DNA of 26,560 nt from Campylobacterota bacterium (GCA_015488875.1 WFMX01000233.1:1-26560); one strand, 5' to 3'; counted from the stretch's first letter, positions 3,605 through 26,560 are shown. Numbers and translations: made by a program. The notes: generated by a model from the sequence alone, not told the origin.

Positions 3605-3871
3605 ATGGCATTTAAACCATTAGCAAATAGAGTATTGATCGAACGAGAAGAGGAGATCACGACCACAGCGACAGGCATCATCATCCCAGACAATGCAAAA
3701 GAGAAACCTTTGACAGGTAAAGTTTTGGCAGTGGGTGTTGATGCTACTGATGAGGGTATAAGCGAAGGTGATATAGTAGTCTTTGGCAAGTATACTGGGA
3801 CAGAGATCACACTAGATGGCAAAGAGTTATTGATCCTGACAAGTGACGATATACTTGGCATCATTGGCTAA
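3605..3871 (+). CDS. groES: Co-chaperonin GroES
   Basis: [10 protein letters not shown], mobile loop [16 protein letters not shown], and ending DDILGII; directly upstream of groEL. Confidence 0.98.
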
Positions 3872-3925
3872 CAGAACAAAACTAAATCAATTTAACAAAA
3901 AACAAAATATTAAAAAAAGGATTGA

Positions 3926-5566
<1,641 letters not shown>

Positions 5567-5753: not shown

Positions 5754-7526
5754 TTACTTGCCTTTCAATAATGCCTGAAACTCTAATGCGGGAGCAGGCT
5801 TGGAAAATATATGCCCTTGGGCTCTGTCGCATCCTAGATTTTGTAATACTTCATACTGCTCTTTAGTCTCTATGCCCTCTGCTACGACTTTCATACTGAG
5901 TGCATGTGCCAATACCACTATGGCTTTGAATGTCTCTTGATGATAGTAGTTTCGATCTATATTTTTCAGTATAGATCTATCGACCTTTAGTGTGTGTATA
6001 GGGAGTTTTTGTAGCTGGTCTATAGATGAGCCACTGGTGCCAAAGTGATCTAGTGAAAGATTGACACCTATATCTTGAAGTATGGAGAACTCGTAATCTG
6101 TCTTGACCATATCTTTCATAGCGTCCTCCTCGGACATATCTAGATTGAAAAAGCTAGGATTTACGCTACTCTCCTTAAAAAGCTGTTCGAGTTTCTCTGC
6201 TAGTTGATACTCTAGTAGCTCTCTGGCAGATAAATTTACCGATATCTCTACGCTTTCCAGCCCCTCCTCTAGCCACTTCTTGTGCTGAGATATCACTTCC
6301 TCTATGACGAACTCTCCTATGCCCACTATGAGTCCAGACTCCTCTGCAAGACGGATAAATCTATTGGGCATAAGTAGTCCTAGCTCTGGATGATTCCATC
6401 GCACCAAGGCTTCTGCACCAACAATACTTGTGCTTCTGAGATCAATAATTGGCTGGTAGTATACTTCAAATTCTCTATTTTTCAATCCACTTTTGATCTC
6501 CTCTACCAATTTTTTCTCATTGTCTCTCACGCCGAATTGCTCTTTTTTGAAGAGTGCTATCGAACTCTTTGGGTCTTTTTTTGACTCCATCAGTGCTATA
6601 TATGCATGATCTATGAGCTTGCTAGAGTTCCTTCCATGGTCTGGGAATATAACGCTACCTATAGAGAAGCTCAGCTCCCTATCTTTGCTCCTTGATGAGA
6701 AAAAACTTACTAGGTTTTTATTGAGCTCATACCCTATCTCTATCACTTCATCTTCGCTTATAATATCCTCTACTATGTATAAAAAATTATCACTCTCTAG
6801 CCTATAACTACTTCTTTTGTCATTATCTAGATTTTTTAAAAATTCTGCAAAATTCTTCAGTAGACTATTTGTATAACCAAATCCAAACGATGATTTCATA
6901 TTTTCAAAATTGTCGATACCAAATAGAAAAAAAGATATCTTTTTATTTTCTCTCTGTGCCGTGATCACTAGTTGATTTATATCTCTGCTTGCCTGAAATT
7001 GACTAGGAAGATTTGTGAGGAAATCGACCTCTCCAAACTGCTTTTTTAGCTCACTCTCCAAAAGCTCACTGCTTATATCCTGAAATACACATATGTATGA
7101 ATCTTGCGAGTTCCACTTGGAGTGATCTATATATACATTGACACTCTTCTTGTGATCTTCGATCAGCATGGATATATTGTCGAGTCGTATAGTCCCTTTG
7201 GTTATCTGTGTATATTTATCTATGATCTCGGAAAGTGTAAATATCTCTGATTTGCCTTCCTGGAATTTGATAGCTTTATCTGCTACTTCACCCTGTCTAT
7301 ATGGCTCCAACTGTAGTAATTTTTTGGCTGATCTATTGGCAGAGAGTACTTCAAAATTCTCTGAAAATATGACCACAGCCTCCTCTTGATACTCGTTTGA
7401 ATTTTTGAATACCTTGATCTCTTCCCTCAAATGAGTAATCTTTTTGAGATAATGCTTTCGCATCATGACCAATATCACCACCATCAACAGCGTCGCGACA
7501 ATAACTATACCTATAAGCATATTCAT
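5754..7526 (-). CDS. Membrane-anchored PAS-like/degenerate GGDEF/EAL protein with a degenerate EAL active site (putative c-di-GMP receptor or pseudo-phosphodiesterase)
   Basis: N-terminal TM (LIGIVIVATLLMVVILVMM). The GGDEF position reads ESDNF. The EAL domain has EAL, N, KVD, EGIE and QG, but DMSE replaces EITE and DHFGTSGSS replaces DDFGTGYSS. The start was moved from 7604 to ATG 7526 to avoid overlap with the upstream gene. Confidence 0.85.
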   Translation of the reverse strand: MNMLIGIVIVATLLMVVILVMMRKHYLKKITHLREEIKVFKNSNEYQEEAVVIFSENFEVLSANRSAKKLLQLEPYRQGEVADKAIKFQEGKSEIFTLSEIIDKYTQITKGTIRLDNISMLIEDHKKSVNVYIDHSKWNSQDSYICVFQDISSELLESELKKQFGEVDFLTNLPSQFQASRDINQLVITAQRENKKISFFLFGIDNFENMKSSFGFGYTNSLLKNFAEFLKNLDNDKRSSYRLESDNFLYIVEDIISEDEVIEIGYELNKNLVSFFSSRSKDRELSFSIGSVIFPDHGRNSSKLIDHAYIALMESKKDPKSSIALFKKEQFGVRDNEKKLVEEIKSGLKNREFEVYYQPIIDLRSTSIVGAEALVRWNHPELGLLMPNRFIRLAEESGLIVGIGEFVIEEVISQHKKWLEEGLESVEISVNLSARELLEYQLAEKLEQLFKESSVNPSFFNLDMSEEDAMKDMVKTDYEFSILQDIGVNLSLDHFGTSGSSIDQLQKLPIHTLKVDRSILKNIDRNYYHQETFKAIVVLAHALSMKVVAEGIETKEQYEVLQNLGCDRAQGHIFSKPAPALEFQALLKGK

Positions 7527-7566
7527 ATCTCTATCTTTGCATCGTAGGATTCTTTGGTGTGATATA

Positions 7567-9360
7567 TCATTTATCCATCTCTCGAACCAAGTTTTGAAAT
7601 TCAAAGACTGGTAGAGGTCTAGAGAAGTAATACCCCTGTGCTATATCACAACCAAAACCTTGAAGCATTTCGTAGGTCTCTTTGTTTTCTATCCCCTCAG
7701 CTGTCACCTGAAGATCAAATGTATGACCTATGCCTATCATGGCTCGTACGATCTTTTGGTGTTCAGGATTGCTCCTCATATTCATCACAAATGATTGATC
7801 TATCTTGATAGTATCTAGTGAAAAATCCTTCAGATAACCAAATGATGAGTACCCTGTACCGAAATCATCAAGTGCCAACTCAACACCTAGATTTTTCAGG
7901 GATTCAAACTCTTTCTTCGCCAAATCAGCCTTGGTCATTGCAACATTTTCTGTGATCTCAAATTTGACAGATTCTGGTGCTACTTGATGATGATTTAGCA
8001 TCTCTTCTATGTAGTTCACAACATTACCACTCTCTATCTCTCTAAGAGTGAGATTGATAGATATTTGAAGCTTGTTGAATTTGAATATCTCCCATCTCTT
8101 CTGCTGTTTGATCGCCTCTTCTATGACGAACTTACCTATATCAACTATGATACCACTCTTTTCGGCTATCGGGATAAAGAGACCTGGCGGTACAAGTCCT
8201 CTCTCTGGATGGTTCCATCTGATGAGTGCCTCTGCCCCTACTATGCTATCTGTCTTCATATCTATAAATGGCTGATAATAGAGTTCAAACTCCTTCCGCT
8301 TCAGCCCCTCATACATCTCATTGTACAATTCTGCTTCATAGTGCTTGCCTTTGGAGAAGTCACCATTGTCATCTATGACTATGTAGCCTCTACCTTTGCT
8401 CTCCGCTTCCGATAGTGCCTTATATGCACTATCTATCATATGATCTACGCTATTGCCACTTTGAGGATATAGGCTAACTCCTGTAGAGAATGTGAGGTGC
8501 ATTTGGGAATTTGAGTACTCTTGTAGACCCCTAAATATCTCTTCCATATTTTTGACTACACCCTCTGCCTCTTTAGAGGTTTTGATATCTGGAACCATCA
8601 TGAGAAAATTGTTTCGTGCTATCTGATACAAGGAGCTATCCATCTTTTTGCTGATATCCAATAGGTATTCAGATATATCGCTTATGAGCCTATCTGTCTT
8701 TTGGTACCCTAGCATTGCTCGGATATCAGTGAAGTTGTCTAAAGATGTCAATATAAGTGCAAAGTGTCTACCCTCTGAGTGCATCTTGCTCATCTCTACA
8801 CCTATCTCATGTATGGCTCTGTTTTGATTTGGTAAACTTGTCAATTGATCTTTTTCGCGTGATTCAGATATCTCCAACTCATCGCTAAGGTCTGTGAATG
8901 AGATGACATAAAATGACTTTGACTTACCTATCAAACCGATCAAGATCTTGATCGGTATATCTTTATCACCTTGTGCAATCTTGGCTCTAAGAACATACTC
9001 TTTTGATTTTTTGACCTCATCTTTATACTCTTTTAGTATACTGAGTATATCTGTAGGTTCTCTGTTTGGTAGAGTTATGACTGATCTATCTTTGAGTCTT
9101 TTCTTGGTCGCTTCTCCATCAAGACCCAATAGCTCTAGTGTTGATTTACTATAATATAGTATCTCATTTGAAGGTGAGAGTACTAACACACCACCCTTAT
9201 ACGCCTCCGAACTCTTTTTGATCTCTTCAAGCGGTGAACTGTTTGGGTCTAGCTTGATATTTTTGGAACGAAATTTTCCATATAGGTGCGATAGTATGAA
9301 ATATGCTATCAAGAGACCAAAAACGATCTCCACAACTATCATGTCAGATGCCATGACCAT
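7567..9360 (-). CDS. Membrane-anchored PAS-like/degenerate GGDEF/EAL c-di-GMP phosphodiesterase
   Basis: N-terminal TM. The GGDEF position reads ARNNF. The EAL domain is intact (EALIRW, INLT, EITE, DDFGTGYSS, KID, EGIE, QGY). AAGGAG lies 5 nt before ATG 9360. Confidence 0.9.
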   Translation of the reverse strand: MVMASDMIVVEIVFGLLIAYFILSHLYGKFRSKNIKLDPNSSPLEEIKKSSEAYKGGVLVLSPSNEILYYSKSTLELLGLDGEATKKRLKDRSVITLPNREPTDILSILKEYKDEVKKSKEYVLRAKIAQGDKDIPIKILIGLIGKSKSFYVISFTDLSDELEISESREKDQLTSLPNQNRAIHEIGVEMSKMHSEGRHFALILTSLDNFTDIRAMLGYQKTDRLISDISEYLLDISKKMDSSLYQIARNNFLMMVPDIKTSKEAEGVVKNMEEIFRGLQEYSNSQMHLTFSTGVSLYPQSGNSVDHMIDSAYKALSEAESKGRGYIVIDDNGDFSKGKHYEAELYNEMYEGLKRKEFELYYQPFIDMKTDSIVGAEALIRWNHPERGLVPPGLFIPIAEKSGIIVDIGKFVIEEAIKQQKRWEIFKFNKLQISINLTLREIESGNVVNYIEEMLNHHQVAPESVKFEITENVAMTKADLAKKEFESLKNLGVELALDDFGTGYSSFGYLKDFSLDTIKIDQSFVMNMRSNPEHQKIVRAMIGIGHTFDLQVTAEGIENKETYEMLQGFGCDIAQGYYFSRPLPVFEFQNLVREMDK

Positions 9361-9394
9361 CACTTCTCCTTAGTGTTACTATTTGATTGGTGCT

Positions 9395-9400
9395 ATTATA
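9395..9400 (-). promoter_or_regulatory. Putative -10 box (TATAAT) for the GGDEF/EAL gene pair, immediately after the xseA stop
   Basis: Minus strand reads TAGgTATAAT...TAAGGAG...ATG. Confidence 0.4.
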
Positions 9401-9401
9401 C

Positions 9402-10661
9402 CTAAAAGTTTATTTTCTGTTGGCAGATAGCTTCTATTTTTGTATCTGAATCTTCGATAATAAAATGCTCGCCTACATTTATGGATTGCAACATAGTGCT
9501 TTTAGCATCCCTTGAGACCTTTGCCCAGCCTTTTTTGGCTCTATCTCTTGGATTGTTCAGAGCCATAGCTTCTCTCATCATACTCTCTTGCTCTTTCGCC
9601 CTAGATAATATGAAATCCATCTGTTGTTTCAAATAGCTCTTTTGTCTAGGTATATGAGATGAGTATTGATCAAGTTTTAGTCCTATCCTTGCTCTATATT
9701 CATCTTCGAGGTATCTAAACTCACTGAGTATCTTTTGAACTTGTCTACTTATGGAGTGCTGATGAAGTAGCTCTAATCTAGTTTTCAGGCTTTCTCGCTT
9801 GATATATAGCAATTGATTCGCTCTAGCTTTGAACCTATCTATATACTCATCTAGCATATATAGCATCTCCTGCTTATCGGGGAGTATCATCTCTATGGCG
9901 GCACTAGGTGTAGGGGCTCTCAGATCTGCCACAAAATCGCTGATCATCACATCTACTTCATGTCCTACTGCACTCACCACAGGTGTATCGAGTCTATATA
10001 TAGCATCTGCCACTATCTCTTCGTTGAAAGCCCATAGATCTTCAGCACTACCTCCACCTCTGCCTACGACGATGACATCAGCACCTAAGCTTTCTGCATA
10101 GTAGAGTGCATCTGCTATCTCACGAGAGGCTCTCTCGCCTTGGACTAGTGTATCTACGATAGTCACCTCGACTAGAGGATAACGCTTCTCTATGATCTTT
10201 ATCATGTCATGCAGTGCAGCACTATCTTTGGCTGTGACAAGTGCTATATGCTGGATATTTGACGGTATAGGTTTTTTCTTCTCTTTGTCGAAATAGCCCT
10301 TGTCTTTGAGTCTGCTTTTGAGCTGTTCGTACGCCAAAGCTAAAGCACCTTTGCCATATGGCTCTATCGTAGTGGCATAGAACTGATACTCTCCTCTAGG
10401 GGTGTAGACTCCTACAGAGCCATCCACTACTATATGCTCACCCTTCTCTAACCTAAACTTAAGTCTTTGTGCATTTGATCTAAACATTACACACTTGATG
10501 CTACTCTTGTCGTCTTTGATAGAGAAATATATATGACCGCTTGACTGGTGGTATGTAATGGACGCTATCTCACCCTCTACTTTGATGTGCATAAAGGTAG
10601 CTTCAAGCAGTGACTTGATCTTGATATTGAGAGCATTTACACCTATCATGGAGCTACTCAT
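9402..10661 (-). CDS. xseA: Exodeoxyribonuclease VII large subunit
   Basis: VEGEIAS..HQSSGHIYFSIKD OB-fold, VVGRGGGSAEDLWAFNEE, VSAVGHEVD and RAPTPSAA. The ubiE-xseA adjacency is typical of Campylobacterales. Confidence 0.96.
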   Translation of the reverse strand: MSSSMIGVNALNIKIKSLLEATFMHIKVEGEIASITYHQSSGHIYFSIKDDKSSIKCVMFRSNAQRLKFRLEKGEHIVVDGSVGVYTPRGEYQFYATTIEPYGKGALALAYEQLKSRLKDKGYFDKEKKKPIPSNIQHIALVTAKDSAALHDMIKIIEKRYPLVEVTIVDTLVQGERASREIADALYYAESLGADVIVVGRGGGSAEDLWAFNEEIVADAIYRLDTPVVSAVGHEVDVMISDFVADLRAPTPSAAIEMILPDKQEMLYMLDEYIDRFKARANQLLYIKRESLKTRLELLHQHSISRQVQKILSEFRYLEDEYRARIGLKLDQYSSHIPRQKSYLKQQMDFILSRAKEQESMMREAMALNNPRDRAKKGWAKVSRDAKSTMLQSINVGEHFIIEDSDTKIEAICQQKINF

Positions 10662-10662
10662 G

Positions 10663-11424
10663 CTAACTATTTGGCTTTTGTGCTACTAGTAGTGTAGATA
10701 TACCCATAGAGAATGATTTGCTATATCTCATCTCGAACCCTACCTCTTCCAACTCCTTAGATAGCATCTCTGTCGTCAAAAACTCCTCTATGGACTCGGG
10801 TAGATACTTATAAGCCTCATAATTATTAGATATGATGCCCCCTACCTTTGGTAGTACCTTTTTCATCCCAAAGTCTACTACCTTGTCTATCATACCGCTT
10901 CGATCTTGCTTTGTAAACTCTAGTATCACCACTATGCCGCCTGGTTTCAATGCTCTGTAGAACTCGCCTAGTGCCTCTACTCTATCTACGACATTTCGTA
11001 TGCCATAAGATATGGAAATAATATCTGTACTCTCATCGTCTACAGGTAGTTCTTGTGCTTTACCCTCTATGAAGTCAGCGAAATCAACTTTACTTTTGGC
11101 TACTTCCAACATGCCAACAGATGGATCAATACCTACAAACTTATCTATCTCTATCCCTCTATCTTTGGCTATGTCTCTCCAATAGATCAAGAGATCACCA
11201 GTGCCTGTAGCCACATCTGTGATCTGCGTAAGTCTATCGCTATCTAGTATATCATATGCTTTGTTACATCCTTTTTTACGCCACTGCTTATCTATACCCA
11301 TGCTTAGTACTCTATTTGCAAGATCATATGTCGATGCTATATCATCAAACATTGTTACTATCTTGTCTTGCTTCACTTTTTTATTCTGCTTGTCTTGTTT
11401 TGACTCTATGCTACCACTATCCAT
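10663..11424 (-). CDS. ubiE: UbiE/MenG-family (demethylmenaquinone) methyltransferase
   Basis: MFDDIASTYDLANRVLSMGIDKQWR, SAM motif DVATGTGD, ISYGIRNV, LKPGG..VILEF and YKYLPESI. Confidence 0.93.
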   Translation of the reverse strand: MDSGSIESKQDKQNKKVKQDKIVTMFDDIASTYDLANRVLSMGIDKQWRKKGCNKAYDILDSDRLTQITDVATGTGDLLIYWRDIAKDRGIEIDKFVGIDPSVGMLEVAKSKVDFADFIEGKAQELPVDDESTDIISISYGIRNVVDRVEALGEFYRALKPGGIVVILEFTKQDRSGMIDKVVDFGMKKVLPKVGGIISNNYEAYKYLPESIEEFLTTEMLSKELEEVGFEMRYSKSFSMGISTLLVAQKPNS

Positions 11425-11452: not shown

Positions 11453-13162
11453 TTATATCTCAATAATCCTATCAACTCCATCAAGCGTAGAGAGTCGGTG
11501 CGTGATGATAATCATCGTCAGCCCTTCAAGCGATAGCGAACCTATGGCATTTGATATCTCTCTCTGTGTCTCTCCATCCAAAGAAGAGGTAGCCTCATCA
11601 AAAAATAGTATCTCAGAGTCATAATACAATGCCCTAGCTATACCGACTCTCTGCCTCTGCCCGCCCGACAGCCTAGTCCCTCTCTCGCCTATATTTGTAT
11701 CTAGACCATTCGGCAAGATATCTACAAGCTCTTCTAATGATGCCAATGATATCACTCTATTTAATTTATCTACATCTATCTCATCTCTGCTCAATCCAAA
11801 AGCTATATTTTCACCAAGTGAGGCATCCAACAAAAAAACCTCTTGTGCTACATACCCTATCTTGGATCTCCATGATTTTATACTACTCTCATCCAACTCA
11901 ATATCATCAATAGTCACTGAGCCTCTGTATGGTTTCAAAAACCCCAATAGTATATTCATAAGAGTTGTTTTTCCATTTCCTGATTTGCCAACTATACCTA
12001 AAGTTTCACCTTTTTTTATCGTGAGTGTGAAGTTTTCCAAGATATCACTCTGCATCTTTGGATATCGAAAAGATATATCTCTGATGGCTATCTCATCATT
12101 GAACTCTATCTCTGTTGACTCCCTAGATATCTCATCAGACTTATCTAGCTCACCTATCACATCAAAAACATATTGTGTCTCTATAAGTCCATTGATCGCT
12201 ATCATTATCCTATTGATAGATGGTATGATACGATATGCAGATAGTATGTAGATACCCAATAGAGCCAATAGAGTCTCCCTGTCTGGCAAAAAATATATAC
12301 CATAAATGATCACTACAAATATAGCCAATACCATAGAACTCTCTATGATTTTGGTAGGCATCAACTGTAGGACTATCTGCTTTGCACTTATATTTTTATA
12401 GAGAGATACATATGTTTTGAGTCTATTAGAGAATTGATCTATTGTGCCAGTGATCTCTATATCTTGATAGCCAAAAAAACTCTGATATATTGTAGAAGAT
12501 AATTTGGGATGAAGTATATGCAACTCTTCGCCATAGATCTTCAATCTCTCCTTTGTCAATATATAAAAGAGAGAGAAGACAGGAGTTACGGTAAGGAGAA
12601 GAAGGAGGACTATAGTGGGATCGTAGAGTAATATAGCTAATAGTATAAACGATAGTATCATCAGTTCACTGATAAGGGTCAGGATCCCAAATAGTGTAGT
12701 GTGTGCAAATCTTTCGGGTATCATTGCACTGTTACGATAAAACTCTGTGGAGTTGATATCTTTTAAATACAGATAGCCTTTTGAGTAGAAGAGTTTATAA
12801 AGTCGTATAGTCAAGTAGCCCATGATGTCATATGAAAATCTTGATTGATAGCTACTGATCATCAGGCTTATGATATTTTTTGAGACTATCACAAGCAACA
12901 TAATGGCACTAAGCGTTATTATGAACTGCTCGTCAGAAGCAAAACCCATATAGTTGTATATAGCCGAGAGTGTACTGTTGTCATGTATCATATTGTCTTT
13001 GAATAGTAGTCCAAATATTGGTATAAGCGTAGCTAAGCCAAATAGCTCCAATGTCGAATTGAGCAGAAGTAGTGCCAGAACTATATACGATCTCTTTCTA
13101 TACTCTTTTGGTAGAATTTTAGATATACCTATGAGAGTTTTGATGATAATATTTGATTGCAT
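11453..13162 (-). CDS. ABC transporter ATP-binding/permease, PglK/WlaB-like lipid-linked oligosaccharide flippase family
   Basis: TMD-NBD fusion with Walker A GKSGNGKTT, LSGGQRQR, Walker B ILFFDE and H-loop THR. The TMD carries the PglK-like YRIIPSINRI motif and an external helix after TM1. The start is uncertain (ATG 13162 or TTG 13168), with no clear RBS. Confidence 0.85.
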   Translation of the reverse strand: MQSNIIIKTLIGISKILPKEYRKRSYIVLALLLLNSTLELFGLATLIPIFGLLFKDNMIHDNSTLSAIYNYMGFASDEQFIITLSAIMLLVIVSKNIISLMISSYQSRFSYDIMGYLTIRLYKLFYSKGYLYLKDINSTEFYRNSAMIPERFAHTTLFGILTLISELMILSFILLAILLYDPTIVLLLLLTVTPVFSLFYILTKERLKIYGEELHILHPKLSSTIYQSFFGYQDIEITGTIDQFSNRLKTYVSLYKNISAKQIVLQLMPTKIIESSMVLAIFVVIIYGIYFLPDRETLLALLGIYILSAYRIIPSINRIMIAINGLIETQYVFDVIGELDKSDEISRESTEIEFNDEIAIRDISFRYPKMQSDILENFTLTIKKGETLGIVGKSGNGKTTLMNILLGFLKPYRGSVTIDDIELDESSIKSWRSKIGYVAQEVFLLDASLGENIAFGLSRDEIDVDKLNRVISLASLEELVDILPNGLDTNIGERGTRLSGGQRQRVGIARALYYDSEILFFDEATSSLDGETQREISNAIGSLSLEGLTMIIITHRLSTLDGVDRIIEI

Positions 13163-13194
13163 GGACAAAGATAAAGCTTGGAGTGAAGATAGAC

Positions 13195-18168: not shown

Positions 18169-18471
18169 CTACCCTTTCATTGACGCTAGGTTATCAAGAT
18201 CAAGCGTTCCATGTCTTTTGTAAAGGACAATCAAAAGTCCCAACCCTACTGCCACTTCACTAGCTGCTACAGCGATGATAAAAAAGGCAAACATTTGCCC
18301 TGATAGATCATTGTAGTAGTGTGAAGTCGCTGCGAATGCGATATTGGCAGCGTTCAACATAACTTCTGTTGCAAAAAATAGCATCAAAAGATTTTTTCTT
18401 CTCAATACACCCACAAGACCTATCGTAAAGAGTAGCCCTGAGAGTATAAGATAGTCATTGAGTTCTATCAT
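18169..18471 (-). CDS. nuoK: Complex I subunit K
   Basis: 100 aa, GLVGVLRRKN, EVMLNAANI and AVAASEVAVGL. Confidence 0.96.
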   Translation of the reverse strand: MIELNDYLILSGLLFTIGLVGVLRRKNLLMLFFATEVMLNAANIAFAATSHYYNDLSGQMFAFFIIAVAASEVAVGLGLLIVLYKRHGTLDLDNLASMKG

Positions 18472-19034
18472 TTTTCATCCTCCTCCAAAATATCTATTTC
18501 CACTATCACATCATCCTCTGTAGTAAGACTCTGATCCATCTTTTTGCCTGCTAAAATAATACCTGCAATCATCGCAACAAGTAGCATAACAGCTGCAACC
18601 TCAAATGGGACAAGATACTTTGTAAATAGCACCATTCCTACCGCCTGTGGATTAGTAACTCCAGCCATAGGTGGATATAGTGCTTGTATGTTTTCACTCA
18701 TTATAGGTGCTGACATTATGATGACAAACATCAACGCGGTCAAGCCACCTAATAAAAATATCAATGATCCATTTGTATTATTCTCTTTGACATCTTTCGT
18801 GACATCAAAAAACATCATAGCAAATGCATAGAGTGCCATTATCGCACCTACATAGACTATCAACTGAACTACACCCAAGAAGTCTGCACCAAGCGTAAAG
18901 AATATCCCCGCTATCAATACCATACCTGCTGCCAATGATGTCATAGAATATAAGACATTTTTAGTCAATACTGTCACTAAAAAGAGCCCTATTATCAAGA
19001 CTGAAAATAGATAAAAAGCTATTTGTTCATACAT
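18468..19034 (-). CDS. nuoJ: Complex I subunit J
   Basis: ADFLGVVQLIVYVGAI and YLVPFEVAAVMLLVAMIAGI. Confidence 0.95.
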   Translation of the reverse strand: MYEQIAFYLFSVLIIGLFLVTVLTKNVLYSMTSLAAGMVLIAGIFFTLGADFLGVVQLIVYVGAIMALYAFAMMFFDVTKDVKENNTNGSLIFLLGGLTALMFVIIMSAPIMSENIQALYPPMAGVTNPQAVGMVLFTKYLVPFEVAAVMLLVAMIAGIILAGKKMDQSLTTEDDVIVEIDILEEDEK

Positions 19035-19045
19035 TTTCTCTCCTT

Positions 19046-19669
19046 TTAGTACGCTAGTGGCGTTTTTTTGATATTGTCGTCAGCATTTGGTGAAACTGCA
19101 CCAAATCCATCAAACTCTTGCTGTTGCCCTAAAGCATCTTTAGGTGTCAACATATCATCAAAGATAGAGAAACTAGCTCTCTGCTCTGATGCAGTTTCGT
19201 ACCGCTGTCCATGGACTATCGCAAGCTCTGGACAAACCTCTGCACAATATCCGCAGAAGATACATCTACCGAAGTTGATCGTATACTCTGTCACCTCTTT
19301 TCTCTGATTTTCATCATATCTTGTATCCATTTTGATACAATCAGAGATACATATCTTTTCACAAAGTCCACATCCGATGCAGCGATAGTGTCCACTCTCA
19401 AGAAGTCTCAACATATCATGTATAGCTCTATATCTAGGAGATATAGGGAGCTTTTCAAATGGATACTTAGTAGTATGCATCCCTCCTCCAAAGAGGGCAT
19501 TTATCATCTCTCTCATCGTCACATAGAGACCTACAAATAGTTCACCTCTAAATGTACGGCTCACTACTCGTTGAAATCTACCCATACCTGTATCAGGAGT
19601 AGGTTCATAATCAACCATCTTGTAGGTTTGTGTTCCTACACTTCTATTTTTAAACTGCTCTAAACTCAT
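19046..19669 (-). CDS. nuoI: Complex I subunit I (2x[4Fe-4S])
   Basis: TKYPFEK, CIGCGLCEKIC and INFGRCIFCGYCAEVCP. Confidence 0.96.
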   Translation of the reverse strand: MSLEQFKNRSVGTQTYKMVDYEPTPDTGMGRFQRVVSRTFRGELFVGLYVTMREMINALFGGGMHTTKYPFEKLPISPRYRAIHDMLRLLESGHYRCIGCGLCEKICISDCIKMDTRYDENQRKEVTEYTINFGRCIFCGYCAEVCPELAIVHGQRYETASEQRASFSIFDDMLTPKDALGQQQEFDGFGAVSPNADDNIKKTPLAY

Positions 19670-19678
19670 ATCTACTCC

Positions 19679-20707
19679 TTACACCATCATCACAAAGCCA
19701 GTGATGACGATATTGATAACTGCTATAGGCATCAAAACTTTCCAACATAGCCACATCAATTGATCTGGTCTAATATGTGGCCAAGATGCTCTCACCCACA
19801 ACATCAAAAAGAATATAAATGCTATCTTCAAAATCACTATAAGCCAACCAGCAATAAAGCCAAGATCATTATACCCACCCATGAACATGACTGCTGCTAT
19901 GACAGAGACTGTGATCATATTGGCATACTCGCCGATAAAAAACATACCCCATCTCATACCAGAGTACTCCGTAGCATATCCAGATATCACCTCTGCTTCA
20001 TTCTCTAGTAGATCAAATGGTGTTCTATTGGTCTCTGCAAAACCTGCTATAAGAAATAGTATGAATGCTACAGGCTGTTGCCAGACCATCCAAGATGCAA
20101 ATCCACCAGTTTGATACTCATTGAAATCCACTAAAGATAGAGAGCCTACCAGCATAATAGGTGCGAGTATAGATAGACCAGTCACAACTTCATAGCTGAG
20201 AAACTGTATAGCCGTTCTAGCACTACCGATGATACCCCACTTATTTGCTTGTGCCATACCAGCTAGTAGCGGACCATATAGCCCTGCTGCCATCATACCA
20301 AGTATAAATAACACACCTACATTGATATCTGCCGCTATAGATGGCACAAAGACACCACCTAGAAGTGGTATCCATTCAGGTATAGTAAAGTCAGGAAATA
20401 CAGGAACTGCTGCCAATGCTATAAAGGCTGTAGCTGCTGTAATAGACGGAGCTATTTGAAATATCAACTTATTGGCATTTTGAGGGACGATATCCTCTTT
20501 GGTGAAGAGTTTGATACCATCTGCTGCAATCTGCAAGAGTCCAAAGGGACCGACATGCATTGGCCCTAGTCGTCTCTGCATAAATGCCAAAACTTTTCTC
20601 TCAAGATAGGTACCAAAACCCGCTACTGCTGAGATAATGGCTAGGATGATAATCGCTTTGATTATCACACCAGCACTTGTCACTTCAGGTAATACTGCTA
20701 TTTCCAT
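19679..20707 (-). CDS. nuoH: Complex I subunit H
   Basis: ERKVLAFMQRRLGP, QIAADGIKLFTKE, ETNRTPFDL and GYATEYSGMRW. Confidence 0.97.
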   Translation of the reverse strand: MEIAVLPEVTSAGVIIKAIIILAIISAVAGFGTYLERKVLAFMQRRLGPMHVGPFGLLQIAADGIKLFTKEDIVPQNANKLIFQIAPSITAATAFIALAAVPVFPDFTIPEWIPLLGGVFVPSIAADINVGVLFILGMMAAGLYGPLLAGMAQANKWGIIGSARTAIQFLSYEVVTGLSILAPIMLVGSLSLVDFNEYQTGGFASWMVWQQPVAFILFLIAGFAETNRTPFDLLENEAEVISGYATEYSGMRWGMFFIGEYANMITVSVIAAVMFMGGYNDLGFIAGWLIVILKIAFIFFLMLWVRASWPHIRPDQLMWLCWKVLMPIAVINIVITGFVMMV

Positions 20708-20709
20708 AT

Positions 20710-23166
20710 CTACACCTCTCTTATTGTTACTGTTTTAAATCTATCTCTACCAAATAGCGAATAGATATCTTTTGTGCTTTTGAAGTCAGGAATCTTGACG
20801 ATATCGCCACCCATCCTCTCATCTACAACTACGCCACACACTAAAACCTCACCACCGAAATCTATCTCTACCTTCTCTCCGAGGAGTTGGGCTTTTGATG
20901 GACTAGCATAGAGAGAGAATGTCTCAAATATCTGATGTGCCTTATCTGTGAAATCACTAAACTGTCTTTGTGGATTGCATCTATACGCTATTTCACCATC
21001 AAGACTAAGTGTCTCATCAAATTTTTCTACTTTTACAGATCCAGCTCTCTTGCCAATATTTTTGAGTAGATAGCCCCTGTTTTCTTCTCCGCTATTTGTG
21101 TATCCATTTGGTAGAGCGTCAAATTCGATCGCTTGGAAGCCTTTTTTGTTGCCTAACATCTCTGTCCAATGAATTGTAAGTTTTCTACCTGACTTCAACG
21201 CACTCATAAGGTCGTTTAATTCATAGCCGTTATACTCAAGTGCTGCATTTGTAGGTACTACTCTTTTATTCATATTGGTGAGTGTACCCTCTTGCTGATT
21301 CATAGCTGGCATATCCAAATCACCATCACCCAATGCACTAAGTCTAAAGTCGCCTGCTTCATTGTATCCTACAGTATAACCATTGGCACTCTCATCGAGG
21401 TCACATATGAGAGCGACACCTAGAGAGTTGGTCTTTGGTGGTATCATCGCCACCTTCATACCACAAGCACTCTCTATGAGAGATACTAGAGTAGCCAAAT
21501 TTGTAGCTTTTGGATGGAAATATAGATCTTCGCCTACTATAAGGGCAAAATCCTCTTTCTTTTTCATCATTTTTGCAAATTTGTCAGCAAAATCGTCAGC
21601 ACCACCGAGGAGAGTCACTAGAGCATTTTCATTTACCTCTACCTCTTTCTCTACCATCTTAGGTATTTTTTTGCTGACCTCTTTACTCTCTCCTGTCTCA
21701 GAGTCTATTACTGTCTCTGTGACACTCTCCATAACCTTCTCTTTGACTATCTTTGTCCCTTTAGTATGGAACGACTCTATATAATCGATAGTCTCTTGAG
21801 GTAGCTTATCTCTATCTGCAAAAAGATCAAGTATGAGATATAATGCTGCCTCTTCAAGTCCTGCTTTGTGATAGAAGCACTCTACACTCTTGCCCAATCC
21901 CTCTATGACTTTGTCACCTACTGGGTGGAAGTAGAGTCCTGCACCTTTGTTCATCTTTTGGATATTGTTGAATGCATATCTTGCATTTGGATTATCATTT
22001 CTCAGAGATGCACCGACACTTATGACAAAGTCAGAACTCATTATCTCTTTGAAATCACTACCATAAAGGAGTTTACCTGCTGGTCTTCCATATGCTCTCA
22101 AGAAGTTTTGAAATGCGTAAGCATCTGGATTGACAAGCTTAGTGCCAAACTTCTCTTTGAGAGTCTGTAGCATCAACGCCTCTTCATTGGTGATGACAGA
22201 GTTAAATCTGATACTATCAGCTTTTTGAAGTGCTTCTACTGCTCTATCAAATGCCTCTATATCTTTGCCCTCAACTCTATTTTCAAAATCATAGCCAAAT
22301 CTACCTGCACCGCATAGAGATACATAGTTCCACTCATTGGTGACACGATATATCTTCTCTGTAGAGTCTTCTATAGATGTCGGCTTAGTCTCATAGTATA
22401 TTTGACAACCACTACTACAGTGAGCACAGGTGGCAGGTGTCCGCTTCAAATCCCATGCATTTGTAGTGTAGACAAAATCTCGACTCACCAAGGCACCCAC
22501 AGGACATACAGCTACACACTCACCGCAATCACTACAATTTGTCTCACCTGTACCATTGCTAGGCACTATGACAGATTTTTGTAGTTTGTTCCACATAGAG
22601 TAGGCATCTTTTGGCATAGACTCTTTGAGACCTTTATCGAGAGTCGCTCCACCTCTAGGTCCTGTTTTGATGGCAGCATCACCTATCATGTCTTTACAGA
22701 CCGTAGTACATCTCTCACATACGATACATAGACCTGCATCATAGTGAAGTACGCTACTCCAATTGGTTGACTCTCTTTTGCTGTCTGGTATCATGTAGCT
22801 TTGAGAGTCTACACCCATCTCTAAGGTATAGTTCTGTAGCTCACACTCACCACTCTGGTCACAAACGCCACATTGAAGCGGATGATTTACATCATACACT
22901 TCCATAATGGCTCGACGCTCTTCGAGGATCTCCTCTGTAGTCGTCGTGACATCCATCCCATCTTTTGCTTTGGCATTACAAGCGTATACTCTCTTGCCAT
23001 CTGCCTCTACAAGACATATGCGACAAGCTAGTGTTGGCGAACAACGCGTTAGATAGCAGATAGCTGGAATGAAGATATCGTTTGCTCTAGCAGCATTGAG
23101 TATATATTCACCCTCTTGGGTCTTATACTCAACACCATCGATTTTGATTGTTATTTCGTTACTCAT
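20710..23166 (-). CDS. nuoG: Complex I subunit G, copy 1 (Campylobacterales-type, adjacent to nuoH)
   Basis: [2Fe-2S] motif (ICY...CRIC...C), HPLQCGVCDQSGEC, two CxxCxxCxxxC motifs, CAHCSSGC...C, and a degenerate molybdopterin-binding-fold C-terminus. It carries the SMPKDAYSMW insert that I recognise from Helicobacter/Campylobacter NuoG. Confidence 0.92.
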   Translation of the reverse strand: MSNEITIKIDGVEYKTQEGEYILNAARANDIFIPAICYLTRCSPTLACRICLVEADGKRVYACNAKAKDGMDVTTTTEEILEERRAIMEVYDVNHPLQCGVCDQSGECELQNYTLEMGVDSQSYMIPDSKRESTNWSSVLHYDAGLCIVCERCTTVCKDMIGDAAIKTGPRGGATLDKGLKESMPKDAYSMWNKLQKSVIVPSNGTGETNCSDCGECVAVCPVGALVSRDFVYTTNAWDLKRTPATCAHCSSGCQIYYETKPTSIEDSTEKIYRVTNEWNYVSLCGAGRFGYDFENRVEGKDIEAFDRAVEALQKADSIRFNSVITNEEALMLQTLKEKFGTKLVNPDAYAFQNFLRAYGRPAGKLLYGSDFKEIMSSDFVISVGASLRNDNPNARYAFNNIQKMNKGAGLYFHPVGDKVIEGLGKSVECFYHKAGLEEAALYLILDLFADRDKLPQETIDYIESFHTKGTKIVKEKVMESVTETVIDSETGESKEVSKKIPKMVEKEVEVNENALVTLLGGADDFADKFAKMMKKKEDFALIVGEDLYFHPKATNLATLVSLIESACGMKVAMIPPKTNSLGVALICDLDESANGYTVGYNEAGDFRLSALGDGDLDMPAMNQQEGTLTNMNKRVVPTNAALEYNGYELNDLMSALKSGRKLTIHWTEMLGNKKGFQAIEFDALPNGYTNSGEENRGYLLKNIGKRAGSVKVEKFDETLSLDGEIAYRCNPQRQFSDFTDKAHQIFETFSLYASPSKAQLLGEKVEIDFGGEVLVCGVVVDERMGGDIVKIPDFKSTKDIYSLFGRDRFKTVTIREV

Positions 23167-23167
23167 C

Positions 23168-25441
23168 TTAACTGTCCATTTTTTCTAGTTTGGATTTACT
23201 AAATCTATAATAGGATACCGAAGTGCTACTTAAGCCCATATCATAAGTAGGGTTTATAGCAACGGTCCCTTTCATAGATGTGTCAATCTTAAACACTCTC
23301 TGATACTCAGTACCATCAATCTCAAAAATTACTCTATCACCATCATCCAATTTTGCGACCGTTGCGAACTGTGAAGAACCTCTCAAGGAAGCTTCTCTAT
23401 TTAGCTGCTCTGTCATATTTGTAAATGGAGAAAATTGACTCCCTGTATCACATCTATATATGACTACACCATCATAGGTAGGTAGATCAGAGATATCAGC
23501 CAACTCTACTCTCTTTGGAACTTTTTCATTTTCTAGTAGATACCCCCTATGCTCGCTTCCATCTATGTCAAAGTAGTCAGGTAGAGAGTCAAACTCTATT
23601 TGGCTGTAACCTTTAGCTATAGGTAGTTGTTTTGTATAGCTGATAGTATACTTCTTCTTCAGCCCCAAGCTATTCATAATATCGTTGAGTACATATCCAC
23701 CATAAGGTAGTGCCACATGTGTAGGGACTAGCCTCTTGTCTATGGAGGTGAAGCTACCCTCCTGCTGATTGAGTGCTGGCATATCCATATCACCACCACC
23801 CATGGAGCTAAGTATATAATCACCTTTTGTATTGTAACCTATCGTATATCCTAATGCCTCATCATCAAGCTCGCATATGAGTGATACACCCAAGGCATTG
23901 GTGGCTGGTGGTACTACTATCAATTCAAAATCACTGTGGGTCTCTATGACACCCAAAAGTCTCGCTATATTCTCAGCTTTAGGATGCTCATATAGATCAG
24001 CACCCACTACTAGAGTGAAGTCTGATTTTTTGAGTAGACCTTTAGCTAATTGCTCTAACTCCTCTTCACCTATGTTACTCTCTGCACTTAGATTACCTAC
24101 ATCAAGATCAGATAGATATTTGGATATCTTGACTGGCAACTCTCTACCATCTAGTAGAGTCTTTGCAAGTAATGCCACTACACCCTCTTCGCTCCCAACC
24201 TCGTACTTCATAAATTGCGTTATGATATTTGAGATAGATGGATCCTCTATAGGGTGCATATATGTGATCTTGGCTCTCTTTCGTTTACTAGCCATAGTGA
24301 TATGATATTTGACCATCGGAGCATCGTCATTGACTCTGCTACCTAGGACTATAATACCTTTAGAGTGACTCAGTTTTTTGAGATCTCCACTATAGAGGGA
24401 GTGACCTGTAGTAGTAGCTAGGGCATTCATAAACTTTTGATAAGCTCTAGCTTCACTACAGATTAGCTTTACTCCACTTCTCTCTCTAAATTTCTGGAAT
24501 ATAAGAGCCTCTTCATTGGTGATGTTCGCAGAGAAGCTGATAGTTTCAGATTTTCTAAAGGCGTTTAGTGTCTCTTCAAACTTCTCTATATCTTTTTCAA
24601 CGCCTCTATTTCCAAAATCATATCCAAATCTACCTGCCCCACACAGTGAACTAAACTCATAGTTGTTTGTAACTCTGTAGATTTTAGTGTCATGGTTTGC
24701 TATAGACTCTGGCTTGACCTCGTAGCTCATTTGGCATGCTGCACTACAGTGACTACAAGAGGCTGGTATCTTCTCTAGCTCCCAAGCATTGGCACTATAT
24801 TTGAAATCTGTGCTTACCAATGCTCCCACAGGACAGACAGACATACACTCACCGCAGTTACTGCACTCTTGACCCTGTTTTGTGTTGATGATAGTAGAGT
24901 TGTATCCGCCTACAGATATAGCCAATACATTGTCGCCGACTATCTCATTGCACACATGGACACACTTTTCACACATGATACATAGTGCAGGATCGTATGA
25001 TATGAAACCCCAATCTTGCACTGGTCTATGCTGATCCCTAGCGGTAAAATCTTGTTGATTTATACCAAACTCCATAGTCTTGTTTTGGAGGTCACACTCC
25101 CCACTCTTGTCGCATACCCCACACTCAAGTGGGTGATTGACATCATAGAGTTTCATGATGTTCTCTCTCTGCTCATGTATCTCATCGTTTGTAGTAGTGA
25201 TGACTGCACCATCAGTAGCTTTCTCTTGACAAGAGAGTATCATACCCTCTACGCCCTCTACGGCTACTACACACATACGACAAGATGCTATAGGCTCTAC
25301 CTTTGTGAGATAACACATAGTAGGTATATATATGCTATTTGCCCTAGCTATATCTAGTATAGTCTGACCAAATTGTGCTTCACATCTCTTGCCATCTATG
25401 GTCACTGTAATCGTTTTGGTTTTGTTGTTTCGTGCTGTCAT
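23168..25441 (-). CDS. nuoG: Second NuoG-like multi-Fe-S protein (tandem paralogue)
   Basis: Same cluster set as copy 1 (MCY...CRMC...C; HPLECGVCDKSGEC; CIMCEKCVHVC; CSNCGECMSVCP; CSHCSAAC...C). The start was moved from 25498 to ATG 25441, immediately after the upstream TGA (25443-25445). Confidence 0.88.
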   Translation of the reverse strand: MTARNNKTKTITVTIDGKRCEAQFGQTILDIARANSIYIPTMCYLTKVEPIASCRMCVVAVEGVEGMILSCQEKATDGAVITTTNDEIHEQRENIMKLYDVNHPLECGVCDKSGECDLQNKTMEFGINQQDFTARDQHRPVQDWGFISYDPALCIMCEKCVHVCNEIVGDNVLAISVGGYNSTIINTKQGQECSNCGECMSVCPVGALVSTDFKYSANAWELEKIPASCSHCSAACQMSYEVKPESIANHDTKIYRVTNNYEFSSLCGAGRFGYDFGNRGVEKDIEKFEETLNAFRKSETISFSANITNEEALIFQKFRERSGVKLICSEARAYQKFMNALATTTGHSLYSGDLKKLSHSKGIIVLGSRVNDDAPMVKYHITMASKRKRAKITYMHPIEDPSISNIITQFMKYEVGSEEGVVALLAKTLLDGRELPVKISKYLSDLDVGNLSAESNIGEEELEQLAKGLLKKSDFTLVVGADLYEHPKAENIARLLGVIETHSDFELIVVPPATNALGVSLICELDDEALGYTIGYNTKGDYILSSMGGGDMDMPALNQQEGSFTSIDKRLVPTHVALPYGGYVLNDIMNSLGLKKKYTISYTKQLPIAKGYSQIEFDSLPDYFDIDGSEHRGYLLENEKVPKRVELADISDLPTYDGVVIYRCDTGSQFSPFTNMTEQLNREASLRGSSQFATVAKLDDGDRVIFEIDGTEYQRVFKIDTSMKGTVAINPTYDMGLSSTSVSYYRFSKSKLEKMDS

Positions 25442-25442
25442 A

Positions 25443-26560
25443 TCACACCGCCACCATTGATATATAGTAGCACCGCATGCATCTCTCAGCTTCTGCAAGT
25501 GCCTCTTCTCCAGTAAACCCTAGATTTACCTCTCTGTTATTATCTTTTCTCTCATCTACTCCGAGCTTCTCACTCTCTGCTCTAGGCAAGCCAGGCATCC
25601 ATCCAGTGATTTTCTCGTTTTTGTCATAGACTTTCAACGCCTCTAAGTGATCCTCCATGATCTCATCATCAGTGAGCGACACCTTTCCATCATATATATA
25701 TCTGCTTATGACAGATGATGCTCTCTTGGCTTGACCGACCGCATTGACTATCGTCATAGGACCATATTCACAATCACCCGCAGCGAAGAGTCCTGCTCTA
25801 CTGGTCATAAAATCCTTGCCGTTTGTAAGGATGGTACTCCACGATGTCATCTTGATATCCCACTCTTCAGGTATGAGCTGAAGGTCGGCTGCTTGCGATA
25901 CAGCAGGTATGAGGTAGTCACACTCTATCTCGAAATCGCCATCATCTATCTTGACGAGTTGAGCTCTACCACCATTTGGATCTGGCACTAGTTCGAACTT
26001 ATTTACAAGCAATTTCTCTAACTGATTGTCAGTATCATATATCTTCTCTACAGCAGAGTGAAATATAAACTCTACTCCCTCCTCTACTGCTTCGTGATAC
26101 TCTTCATAGGTGGTATTTCTGATGATAGTTTTTTCATCTCTACGATATATCATTATCACCTTTTTAGCACCATCACGGATAGCACATCGCACTACATCCA
26201 TGGAAGTAAATCCACCACCTACGCAGACCACAACTTTATCTTTGAGTTCGTTGGAAGCTGGTGAGCCTATGCCATATTTCGTCCATAAATTTACTTTGTC
26301 AAGCATATCTATAGCACCCCAATATCCATCCATGTCTGGTCGCTCATTTTCAGCTCTGACCTTCTTGGATAGTCTAGTACCAAATGATAGTAGCGTAGCA
26401 TCATACTCTCTATCTATCTCTTTGAGTCTAGTAGAGTCTACTCTATGGTTGCTATATACTGTCACCGCATCCATAGATGTGACCAACTCTATATCTTTGT
26501 TGTATCTATCTATAGGCATTCGATACTCTGGTACACCCACTGCAACTTCACCACCCAAAA
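25443..26560 (-). CDS. GltD/SfrB/NfnB-like FAD-dependent NAD(P)H oxidoreductase; 5' part lies outside the window
   Basis: GVPEYRMP, second Rossmann VGGGFTSMD, the YRR NADPH-type motif, GLFAAGD..GP.TIVNAVGQAK, and C-terminal EAERCMRC. The ORF is open to the window edge. Confidence 0.88.
   Translation of the reverse strand, partial: LGGEVAVGVPEYRMPIDRYNKDIELVTSMDAVTVYSNHRVDSTRLKEIDREYDATLLSFGTRLSKKVRAENERPDMDGYWGAIDMLDKVNLWTKYGIGSPASNELKDKVVVCVGGGFTSMDVVRCAIRDGAKKVIMIYRRDEKTIIRNTTYEEYHEAVEEGVEFIFHSAVEKIYDTDNQLEKLLVNKFELVPDPNGGRAQLVKIDDGDFEIECDYLIPAVSQAADLQLIPEEWDIKMTSWSTILTNGKDFMTSRAGLFAAGDCEYGPMTIVNAVGQAKRASSVISRYIYDGKVSLTDDEIMEDHLEALKVYDKNEKITGWMPGLPRAESEKLGVDERKDNNREVNLGFTGEEALAEAERCMRCYYISMVAV

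Follow-up and report, generated by a model that had tools for sequence, protein, structure and literature searches.

Organisation of the locus

We analysed a stretch of 26,560 nucleotides (hereafter the window; WFMX01000233.1:1-26560), which is one entire contig (C233) of a metagenome-assembled genome (MAG; GCA_015488875.1) of a Campylobacterota bacterium and which carries a respiratory complex I (nuo) operon with an unusual electron-input end: a flavoprotein of NADPH (reduced nicotinamide adenine dinucleotide phosphate) type in the slot of NuoF, followed by two tandem NuoG paralogues. The MAG is 81% complete and comprises 343 contigs; homologues bear the names Sulfurovum or Sulfurovaceae. The operon forms one string of minus-strand genes running from position 26558 down to 13228, in which the open reading frame (ORF) of the flavoprotein is followed by nuoG2, nuoG1 and nuoH to nuoN:

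25443..26558, minus strand: NuoF-slot flavoprotein gene, 3' part (371 codons and stop), open at the contig end; Pyr_redox_2, PRK12771/PRK12814/gltA
23168..25441, minus strand: nuoG2, the shorter NuoG paralogue, 757 residues; PRK08493, 900 bits
20710..23166, minus strand: nuoG1, the longer NuoG, 818 residues; PRK08493, 1085 bits, end to end
19679..20707, minus strand: nuoH; PF00146, E 8e-107; starts 2 nucleotides past the nuoG1 stop
19046..19669, minus strand: nuoI, two 4Fe-4S clusters; Fer4/Fer4_7 and operon position
18468..19034, minus strand: nuoJ; PF00499
18169..18471, minus strand: nuoK; PF00420
16259..18166, minus strand: nuoL; PF00361 and PF00662
14718..16247, minus strand: nuoM; PF00361
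13228..14718, minus strand: nuoN, final gene of the operon, with a 59-nucleotide gap to the next gene; PF00361

An earlier reading of the DNA (the original prediction) had described these genes as tightly coupled, and the junctions and their gaps of 1-2 nucleotides are exactly as it gave them. Specifically, the flavoprotein and nuoG2 genes meet at GTG-TGA-t-ATG (stop at 25445-25443, ATG at 25441), nuoG2 and nuoG1 at AGT-TAA-g-ATG (stop at 23170-23168, ATG at 23166), and nuoG1 and nuoH at TAG-at-ATG (nuoH ATG at 20707), while the intergenic gaps from nuoH to nuoN, genes identified by Pfam, range from -4 to 11 nucleotides. As the contig extends no further than the window, the flavoprotein gene lacks its 5' 298 codons and everything upstream of it is absent; these parts were read from relatives.

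Upstream genes in related genomes

An orthologue of the truncated flavoprotein gene was found in 28 of 31 relatives, with same-genus reading frames encoding about 670-690 residues. The part in the window is 90% identical to residues 299-669 of P0004, a 669-residue orthologue from the same genus. A same-genus contig (L015) holds the full operon, namely nuoABCD, a gene for NuoX, a full-length flavoprotein gene (7560-9569, minus strand; 669 residues), nuoG2, nuoG1 and nuoH onward. Its NuoX is a cysteine-free protein of 101 residues that matches PF16514 (“putative NADH-ubiquinone oxidoreductase chain E”, the HP1264/Cj1575c type).

We compared 26 loci with the flavoprotein and 13 without it. In all same-genus and other related loci examined, nuoABCD and NuoX lie upstream, and every gene from nuoA to nuoJ was identified in the 26 flavoprotein-bearing loci. 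None of these 26 has a canonical nuoE or nuoF upstream of the flavoprotein gene, as nuoD is followed by the PF16514 gene instead; the claim that the electron-input module of this complex has been rebuilt thus held when the upstream genes and their synteny were checked. Likewise, no gene for an NfnA-type small subunit occurs between nuoA and nuoJ in these loci. The flavoprotein and NuoG2 genes always stand between nuoD/nuoX and nuoG1/nuoH, with ORFs that overlap or are spaced by 1 nucleotide.

The 5' part of the window's own operon (nuoABCD and NuoX) was not found on the other contigs of the 81%-complete MAG. We considered contigs C261, C91 and C97 as the missing part and rejected them: their nuoA, B, C, D and nuoF matches are only 27-52% identical, and they therefore come from other nuo sets.

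An NADPH-type flavoprotein in the NuoF slot

Within the window, the flavoprotein part matched Pyr_redox_2 and GltD/NfnB-type models only (Pfam, NCBIfam), in agreement with the original prediction that the gene directly upstream of the nuoG pair is not a canonical NuoF. The full-length orthologue P0004 contains the NuoF C-terminal iron-sulfur (Fe-S) domain (PF10589) at residues 73-145, the two-cluster domain of GltD, DPD and NfnB (Fer4_20, PF14691) at residues 168-247, and a domain binding flavin adenine dinucleotide (FAD) and NAD(P)H (PF07992) at residues 265-575. PF10589 is the sole piece of NuoF in P0004, and the NuoF domain that binds flavin mononucleotide (FMN) and NADH is absent from it. 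In canonical complex I, the C-terminal domain of NuoF carries cluster N3 and contacts NuoG. By its domain matches, then, all that the flavoprotein retains of NuoF is the C-terminal helical domain, which is fused to a module of GltD/NfnB type predicted from sequence to hold two 4Fe-4S clusters, FAD and an NADPH site. The motif expected to bind the NADPH 2'-phosphate, Tyr436-Arg437-Arg438, is invariant among orthologues, as are the FAD and NADPH glycine motifs. This invariance bears out the earlier description of a GltD-like protein of NADPH type, and we classify the flavoprotein on these motifs as an NADPH-type homologue of GltD and NfnB.

The canonical NuoEFG N-module binds N3 by four cysteines, whereas in the flavoprotein the third cysteine of the NuoF motif Cys-x-x-Cys-x-x-Cys is replaced by glycine in 26/26 orthologues. 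At the other end, the C-terminal tail Arg-Cys-Met-Arg-Cys-Tyr-Tyr is invariant among the orthologues, and its Cys-x-x-Cys-Tyr core is common to the whole flavoprotein family.

Among solved structures, the best relatives of the GltD part with its C-terminal extension are the GltD modules of 9bov_A, of NfnA from the archaeal NfnABC (9n5u_A) and of StnC (8oh5_C), followed by NfnB (4ylf_B, E 1.2e-62; 5jca_L, E 8.5e-61); matches of the GltD part to solved Bfu/Nfn-type structures range from E 1e-62 to 4e-77. The N-terminal part is closest to the C-termini of the NuoF-like HydB, NfnB and StnB (E of about 1e-15 to 1e-19). An exhaustive search returned colinear relatives of 640-685 residues at 30-40% identity, and the same three-domain architecture occurs in ESM-Atlas in Pseudomonadota, Bacillota, Deferribacterota, Thermodesulfobacteriota and Actinomycetota.

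The nearest relative outside the Campylobacterota, P0248 (40% identity; L057:6001-7956), carries the source name “formate dehydrogenase (NADP+) beta subunit” and is encoded beside a gene of 855-859 codons for an FdhA-like protein with molybdopterin domains, the two forming a stand-alone pair. Glycine likewise replaces the third N3 cysteine of P0248, which has a Cys-x-x-Cys-Tyr tail as well. From these likenesses we assign the flavoprotein to the FdhB/SfrB-type family. Beta subunits of this type presumably serve the NADP+-dependent formate dehydrogenase of acetogens (Moorella FdhB) and Geobacter SfrAB. The original prediction had compared the flavoprotein and NuoG2 together with SfrAB, and since P0248 is paired with an FdhA-like partner, the analogy is a fair one; it stands for the flavoprotein, with its FdhB/SfrB architecture and a nearest relative beside an FdhA/SfrA-like gene, but fails for NuoG2, which is a duplicate of NuoG (see below).

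A nuo operon of a deltaproteobacterial MAG encodes a further relative, P0251, whose gene stands between nuoD and the only NuoG/FdhA-like gene there, of 868 codons. Given that this relative from outside the phylum is also part of a nuo operon, the gene orders indicate that FdhB/SfrB-type modules joined complex I in more than one lineage. The deltaproteobacterial operon (L060:3455-13992, L061; MBW2146430.1) shares with the window type a flavoprotein of the same family (36% identity) following nuoD, but its single 868-residue NuoG/FdhA-like subunit keeps the molybdopterin domains, it lacks both NuoE and NuoX, and its flavoprotein has the canonical four-cysteine N3 motif.

We also considered P0247 (962 residues) as a full NuoF-GltD fusion intermediate and rejected it, since it proved to share the architecture of the other flavoproteins, extended by an insertion, and its operon includes NuoX and two enlarged NuoGs. 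The insertion lies between the NuoF-type and GltD-type parts, and the NuoG copies of this Campylobacterota-type nuo operon measure 1046 and 1012 residues. A smaller version of the insertion is present in a 724-residue flavoprotein (L036).

NuoG2 is an old duplicate of NuoG

Two tandem NuoG paralogues had been proposed, and both proteins indeed score above the cut-off of 591 bits for the epsilon-type NuoG model (NCBIfam PRK08493), with 1085 bits for NuoG1 and 900 for NuoG2, and are 39% identical to each other. Three segments are present in NuoG1 only (residues 173-195, 471-490 and 498-522). Both proteins possess the ligand sets for N1b (four cysteines), N5 (a histidine and three cysteines) and N7, together with an eight-cysteine ferredoxin motif that corresponds to N4 and one extra cluster. 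NuoG2 would thereby hold one 2Fe-2S cluster (N1b) and four 4Fe-4S clusters, and its cysteine and histidine ligands are conserved in 23-26 of 26 orthologues. Molybdopterin domains were not recognised in NuoG2 (PF00384 at 22 bits against a cut-off of 24; no match to PF01568), and NuoG1 has neither. No Campylobacterota complex I is among the solved structures, and the best NuoG match there is the Aquifex NuoEFG subcomplex 7q5y.

In a maximum-likelihood tree, NuoG2 sequences fall on one side of a branch with 100% support in the Shimodaira-Hasegawa-like approximate likelihood ratio test (SH-aLRT), while NuoG1 and the single NuoGs of operons with one copy fall on the other, the single NuoGs being interleaved among NuoG1 in at least five places. 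Addition of FdhA-like and NuoG-like outgroups left NuoG1 and the single NuoGs a clade (100% support). The tree identifies NuoG1 as the orthologue of the single NuoG in Campylobacter/Helicobacter-type operons. NuoG1 and NuoG2 match each other at 575-588 bits and either matches the outgroups at 190-260 bits, and the nearest ESM-Atlas clusters to NuoG2 beyond its own type are Campylobacterota NuoG1 types. The tree split, the bit scores and these nearest clusters identify NuoG2 as an old duplicate of the phylum's own NuoG.

Two other origins were rejected. Import of NuoG2 as an SfrA/FdhA protein was ruled out by the 575-588 against 190-260 bits and by the NuoG1-type neighbours in ESM-Atlas. Reassembly from a Cj1574c-like gene and the N-terminus of NuoG1 was rejected because a tree of just the N-terminal 300 residues separates NuoG2 from NuoG1 in the same way, with NuoG2 still one clade.

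The Campylobacter and Helicobacter NuoF-slot protein resembles a truncated NuoG2

All 13 loci without the flavoprotein have a single NuoG, preceded by a protein of 230-340 residues with no Pfam family. In BLASTP comparisons these NuoF-slot proteins match the window's NuoG2 at residues of about 350-510 and 635-757 (best match 41% identity, 119 bits, E 1e-33), with far weaker matches to NuoG1. Using hhalign, they align to NuoG2 with a probability of 100% (E 1.7e-56, NuoG2 columns 359-761), against E 1e-24 for NuoG1 and the single NuoGs, and a tree built on the columns in common places them within the NuoG2 clade. Examples are the following, with nine further loci:

L038:8247-8987, minus strand: NuoF-slot protein
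L042:7593-8444, minus strand: NuoF-slot protein
L041:6065-6910, plus strand: NuoF-slot protein
L045:5533-6552, plus strand: NuoF-slot protein

The first of these is a Campylobacter concisus-group protein, with “hypothetical”, “NADH dehydrogenase” and “NuoF” as source names, and is therefore of the Cj1574c type. The Cj1574c/HP1265-type subunit thus looks like NuoG2 without its Fe-S N-terminus, and since NuoG2 is a full-length NuoG paralogue, the direction of change must have been truncation. Lineages without the flavoprotein have shed the Fe-S half of NuoG2 as well, and only the C-terminal half remains in them. The original prediction had pictured an NADPH module grafted onto a flavodoxin-type complex I; the direction is probably the reverse. 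As the NuoF-slot protein of the flavodoxin type is a truncated NuoG2, the form with two NuoGs looks ancestral.

In C. jejuni, Cj1574c and Cj1575c are taken to mediate flavodoxin input into complex I (PMC4178425), and HP1264 is reported to bind FMN (PMC6269979). We found no published statement that Cj1574c or HP1265 derives from NuoG in the literature covered, which did not include Weerakoon & Olson 2008.

Distribution and co-occurrence with the reverse tricarboxylic acid cycle

We surveyed 200 Campylobacterota genomes of at least 90% completeness, mostly from Campylobacter- and Helicobacter-like genera. The flavoprotein was found in 36 of them and NuoX in 163. It was present in all sampled members of families f1, f4, f7, f10, f15, f16, f17 and f18, and also in a few genomes of f9 and f14. 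The gene order was the same in all 26 flavoprotein-bearing loci, which represent at least 10 families. Full-length NuoG2 accompanied the flavoprotein in 26/26 loci (L037 ends inside NuoG2) and was found in 0/13 loci without it. At least five changes of state fall on the NuoG1 tree, and the flavoprotein goes with the Fe-S half of NuoG2 in five of five independent contrasts (p 0.06, the lowest value reachable with five pairs).

As a marker of the reverse tricarboxylic acid (TCA) cycle we took the citrate-binding domain of ATP-citrate lyase (PF16114), which the window's MAG also carries. This marker was present in 31/36 flavoprotein-bearing genomes, and 31 of the 40 marker-bearing genomes had the flavoprotein, an association that is inflated by kinship. 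In family f9 (nine genomes), marker and flavoprotein occur in two genomes each, and these are the same two.

A second nuo set in the same genome

The three contigs of the MAG rejected above as the missing 5' part carry the following nuo genes:

C97 (L054): last 291 codons of a canonical NuoF gene (TIGR01959 positions 122-410, at the contig end), a short NuoG of 466 residues, nuoH-L
C91 (L055): nuoB, C, D
C261 (L056): nuoA, B

A full-length NuoF-family gene was found in 12 of 13 other genomes of the genus, and none was found in five other sampled genera of the family. To judge from these genes, the organism probably also has an NADH-type complex I, and the NADPH-type enzyme is likely to have a role of its own.

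Relation to known systems

The layout is real and widespread, but it has been reported from genomes before, along with a hypothesis on its function. The original prediction had supposed that genome reports might have noted such gene orders, and one such account is the 2019 preprint of McNichol & Sievert on Sulfurimonas denitrificans (bioRxiv 10.1101/717884). There, Suden_1824 is described as an NfnB-like replacement of NuoF with conserved residues for the NADPH phosphate, and Suden_1823 (short) and Suden_1822 (long) as NuoGs with 36% identity, two regions being named as absent from the short copy. According to its authors, the composition is universally conserved in Sulfurimonas and Sulfurovum, and S. 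denitrificans expresses both nuoG copies equally; they attribute the first notice of a non-canonical NuoEF and of two NuoGs in chemoautotrophs to Weerakoon & Olson 2008, and they put forward reverse electron transport driven by the proton-motive force (pmf), with bifurcation to NAD(P)H and ferredoxin. Two inputs and reverse transport, as the original prediction supposed, and bifurcation are thus hypotheses already in print. The S. denitrificans operon and the window agree in gene order, in the NfnB-like flavoprotein with its Tyr-Arg-Arg motif, and in a short and a long NuoG of 36-39% identity, the short one lacking the same two regions. Nothing essential differs: the window comes from another species, a vent Sulfurovum MAG, and its operon is cut at the contig end. 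In the text consulted, the preprint is silent on the C-terminal domain of NuoF, on the cysteine missing from N3 and on the connection with Cj1574c, and our literature search found no later biochemical or structural work on the NADPH-type complex I.

The flavodoxin-fed complex I of C. jejuni and H. pylori (NuoX/NuoY: Cj1575c/Cj1574c and HP1264/HP1265) has in common with the window type the PF16514 protein NuoX, the NuoG1 orthologue and the membrane arm, and its NuoF-slot protein is homologous to the C-terminal half of NuoG2. Unlike the window, operons of this type have neither the flavoprotein nor the Fe-S half of NuoG2, and their single NuoGs keep the N7 ligands in only 5 of 13 cases. The FdhB/SfrB-type systems share the combination of the NuoF C-terminal domain, Fer4_20 and the FAD/NADPH domain in about 650-670 residues, the Cys-x-x-Cys-Tyr tail and a NuoG-like partner encoded directly downstream. 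By contrast, the partner in the window is a complex I NuoG paralogue without recognisable domains for a molybdenum or tungsten bis(pyranopterin guanine dinucleotide) (Mo/W-bisPGD) cofactor, and the pair forms part of a nuo operon, whereas SfrAB and FdhAB are stand-alone soluble pairs whose alpha subunit has molybdopterin-oxidoreductase and molybdopterin-binding domains, both found in the partner of P0248 and not in NuoG2.

Among bifurcating enzymes, NfnAB (NfnSL; 4ylf, 5jca) resembles the window type in its NfnB-type large subunit (FAD, two 4Fe-4S clusters, NADPH site) but differs in having an NfnA-type small subunit (ferredoxin-NADP reductase-like, with FAD and 2Fe-2S), which this operon type lacks. 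The Bfu-type NfnABC (9n5u) and Stn (8oh5) enzymes provide the best solved matches for both halves of the flavoprotein. Their domains are divided over different polypeptides, however, and the window type has neither the FMN/NADH domain nor a 2Fe-2S NuoE (NuoX has no cysteine) and is attached to a proton-pumping membrane arm.

Neighbouring genes

Elsewhere on the contig, the nuo operon is flanked by genes linked to menaquinone, namely a VitK2_biosynth gene (futalosine-pathway type) and one for a UbiE/MenG-type methyltransferase, and the contig also carries the molybdenum-cofactor gene MoeA and a MoaE-like gene. The features outside the operon are:

2356-3003 (plus), 10663-11424 (minus), 209-1408 (minus) and 1594-2043 (minus): menaquinone-related and molybdenum-cofactor genes, as a group
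3605-5566, plus strand: groES-groEL
5754-7604 and 7567-9363, minus strand: two tandem, slightly overlapping GGDEF-EAL genes (cyclic-di-GMP turnover), 616 and 598 residues
9402-10661, minus strand: xseA
11453-13168, minus strand: gene for the ATPase of an ATP-binding cassette (ABC) transporter

Proposed function and alternative explanations

The window operon is the Sulfurovum copy of the known form that complex I takes in chemolithoautotrophic Campylobacterota, and we consider it reasonably probable that it acts as a reversible NADP(H):menaquinone oxidoreductase. In such an enzyme, NuoG1 would occupy the normal NuoG position on NuoCD/I/B, and the C-terminal half of NuoG2 together with NuoX would make up a cap, still present in Campylobacter as Cj1574c/Cj1575c. 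The flavoprotein would dock by its NuoF-type domain onto the Fe-S half of NuoG2, which would lengthen the wire of clusters as far as FAD and NADP(H). Where sulfur or hydrogen is oxidised and CO2 is fixed by a reverse TCA cycle, the enzyme would run mostly backwards, with the pmf pushing electrons from quinol to NADP+, and a flavodoxin or ferredoxin site of the Campylobacter kind may also persist. Speaking for such an enzyme are the tightly coupled gene order, repeated in the 26 loci; the domains of P0004 and their solved relatives; the invariant FAD and NADPH motifs; the complete Fe-S ligand sets of both NuoGs; the constant pairing of flavoprotein and full-length NuoG2; the kinship of the Cj1574c-type subunit with NuoG2; the co-occurrence with the ATP-citrate lyase marker; the deltaproteobacterial nuo operon; and the hypothesis and nuoG expression published for S. 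denitrificans. A bolder form, which we regard as speculative and rather unlikely, is a pmf-driven complex I with two exits, in which one NuoG chain would lead through the flavoprotein to NADP+ and the NuoX/NuoG2 cap to ferredoxin or flavodoxin; the flavodoxin-only enzyme of the pathogens would then be a repeatedly reduced remnant.

Several observations weigh against a reversible NADP(H):menaquinone oxidoreductase. The N3 site of the flavoprotein has three of its four cysteines in all 26 orthologues, and the link between FAD and NuoG may therefore differ from the canonical one. In the AlphaFold model of the flavoprotein, the Fe-S loops and the tail at the C-terminus have a predicted local distance difference test (pLDDT) score of less than 50, too poor to tell whether the Cys-x-x-Cys of the tail supplies the fourth ligand of N3. 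The genus also has the NuoF-containing second nuo set, with which the NADPH-type enzyme would share its work. The co-occurrence with the reverse TCA cycle has exceptions in both directions (5 flavoprotein genomes without the marker and 9 marker genomes without the flavoprotein). The runs listed with the window sequence are of hydrothermal-vent metagenome DNA only, with no RNA run among them, and the assembly and substrate of the complex are predicted from its genes.

One alternative is the scheme of McNichol & Sievert (bioRxiv 10.1101/717884), a complex I that bifurcates or confurcates, in which pmf-driven electrons from quinol would be split in a fixed ratio between NADP+ at the flavoprotein and ferredoxin at or near one of the NuoG copies. 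The closest solved relatives of the flavoprotein all come from flavin-based bifurcating enzymes (4ylf_B, 9n5u_A, 8oh5_C), two branches could be provided by the two NuoGs, whose cluster chains are complete and include one extra 4Fe-4S cluster each, and the Cj1574c-like half of NuoG2 is tied to flavodoxin input in Campylobacter. The partners that define such enzymes are missing, however, as there is neither an NfnA-type small subunit nor an FMN-bearing NuoF domain; no ferredoxin site can be identified from the sequence, and the energetics and stoichiometry are hypothetical. We hold this scheme to be doubtful. That the flavoprotein and NuoG2 instead constitute a separate, soluble NADPH oxidoreductase of the SfrAB/FdhAB kind, merely co-transcribed with nuo genes and feeding a soluble carrier, would suit P0248, whose gene forms a free-standing unit with that of an FdhA-like protein and which bears a formate dehydrogenase name. 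We judge it improbable, given that the pair always stands between nuoD/nuoX and nuoG1/nuoH in the 26 loci, that NuoG2 is a NuoG duplicate with no molybdopterin domain above threshold, and that its C-terminal half persists as the Cj1574c-type subunit where the flavoprotein has been lost.

Alternatively, flavodoxin or ferredoxin could be the sole electron donor to the complex, as in C. jejuni, with the flavoprotein an accessory, for instance a regulatory or protective NADPH-dependent side path. NuoX is common to the Campylobacter enzyme (it occurs in 163 of the 200 genomes), the N3 site is incomplete, and the genus has a separate NuoF-type complex for NADH. Yet at least 10 families show strict conservation of all cofactor ligands, both in the flavoprotein and in NuoG2's Fe-S half, which argues for a working electron path and makes a purely accessory role decidedly improbable. 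Finally, NuoG1 and NuoG2 might be alternative isoforms, one per complex according to growth condition, as both have complete sets of cluster ligands. This is highly improbable: the two genes are adjacent, 1 nucleotide apart in one operon, both are reported to be equally expressed in S. denitrificans (bioRxiv 10.1101/717884), and only NuoG1 is orthologous to the single NuoG, while the remnant of NuoG2 coexists with it in those operons.

Implications for Campylobacterota energy metabolism

Dark sulfidic habitats and vents are dominated by Campylobacterota that oxidise sulfur and hydrogen. These bacteria need low-potential reductant for CO2 fixation, and the operon described here is the leading candidate for its source and has been named as such in print. 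Taken alone, the locus is one more instance of a known layout. The additions made here are incremental and comprise the assignment to the FdhB/SfrB type, the altered N3 site, the obligatory pairing with full-length NuoG2, the NuoG2 origin of the Cj1574c type and the coexisting NuoF-type complex. Together, the three-cysteine N3 site of the flavoprotein, the obligatory pairing and the derivation of Cj1574c/HP1265 from NuoG2 yield concrete structural predictions about where NuoG2 sits in the complex.

For Campylobacter and Helicobacter, the essential and unexplained Cj1574c/HP1265 subunit would be what remains of NuoG2, which suggests that the flavodoxin-fed complex I of these pathogens descends from an NADPH-linked one. 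In the chemolithoautotrophs, should the two-exit reading prove true, one membrane machine would supply both reductants of the reverse TCA cycle.

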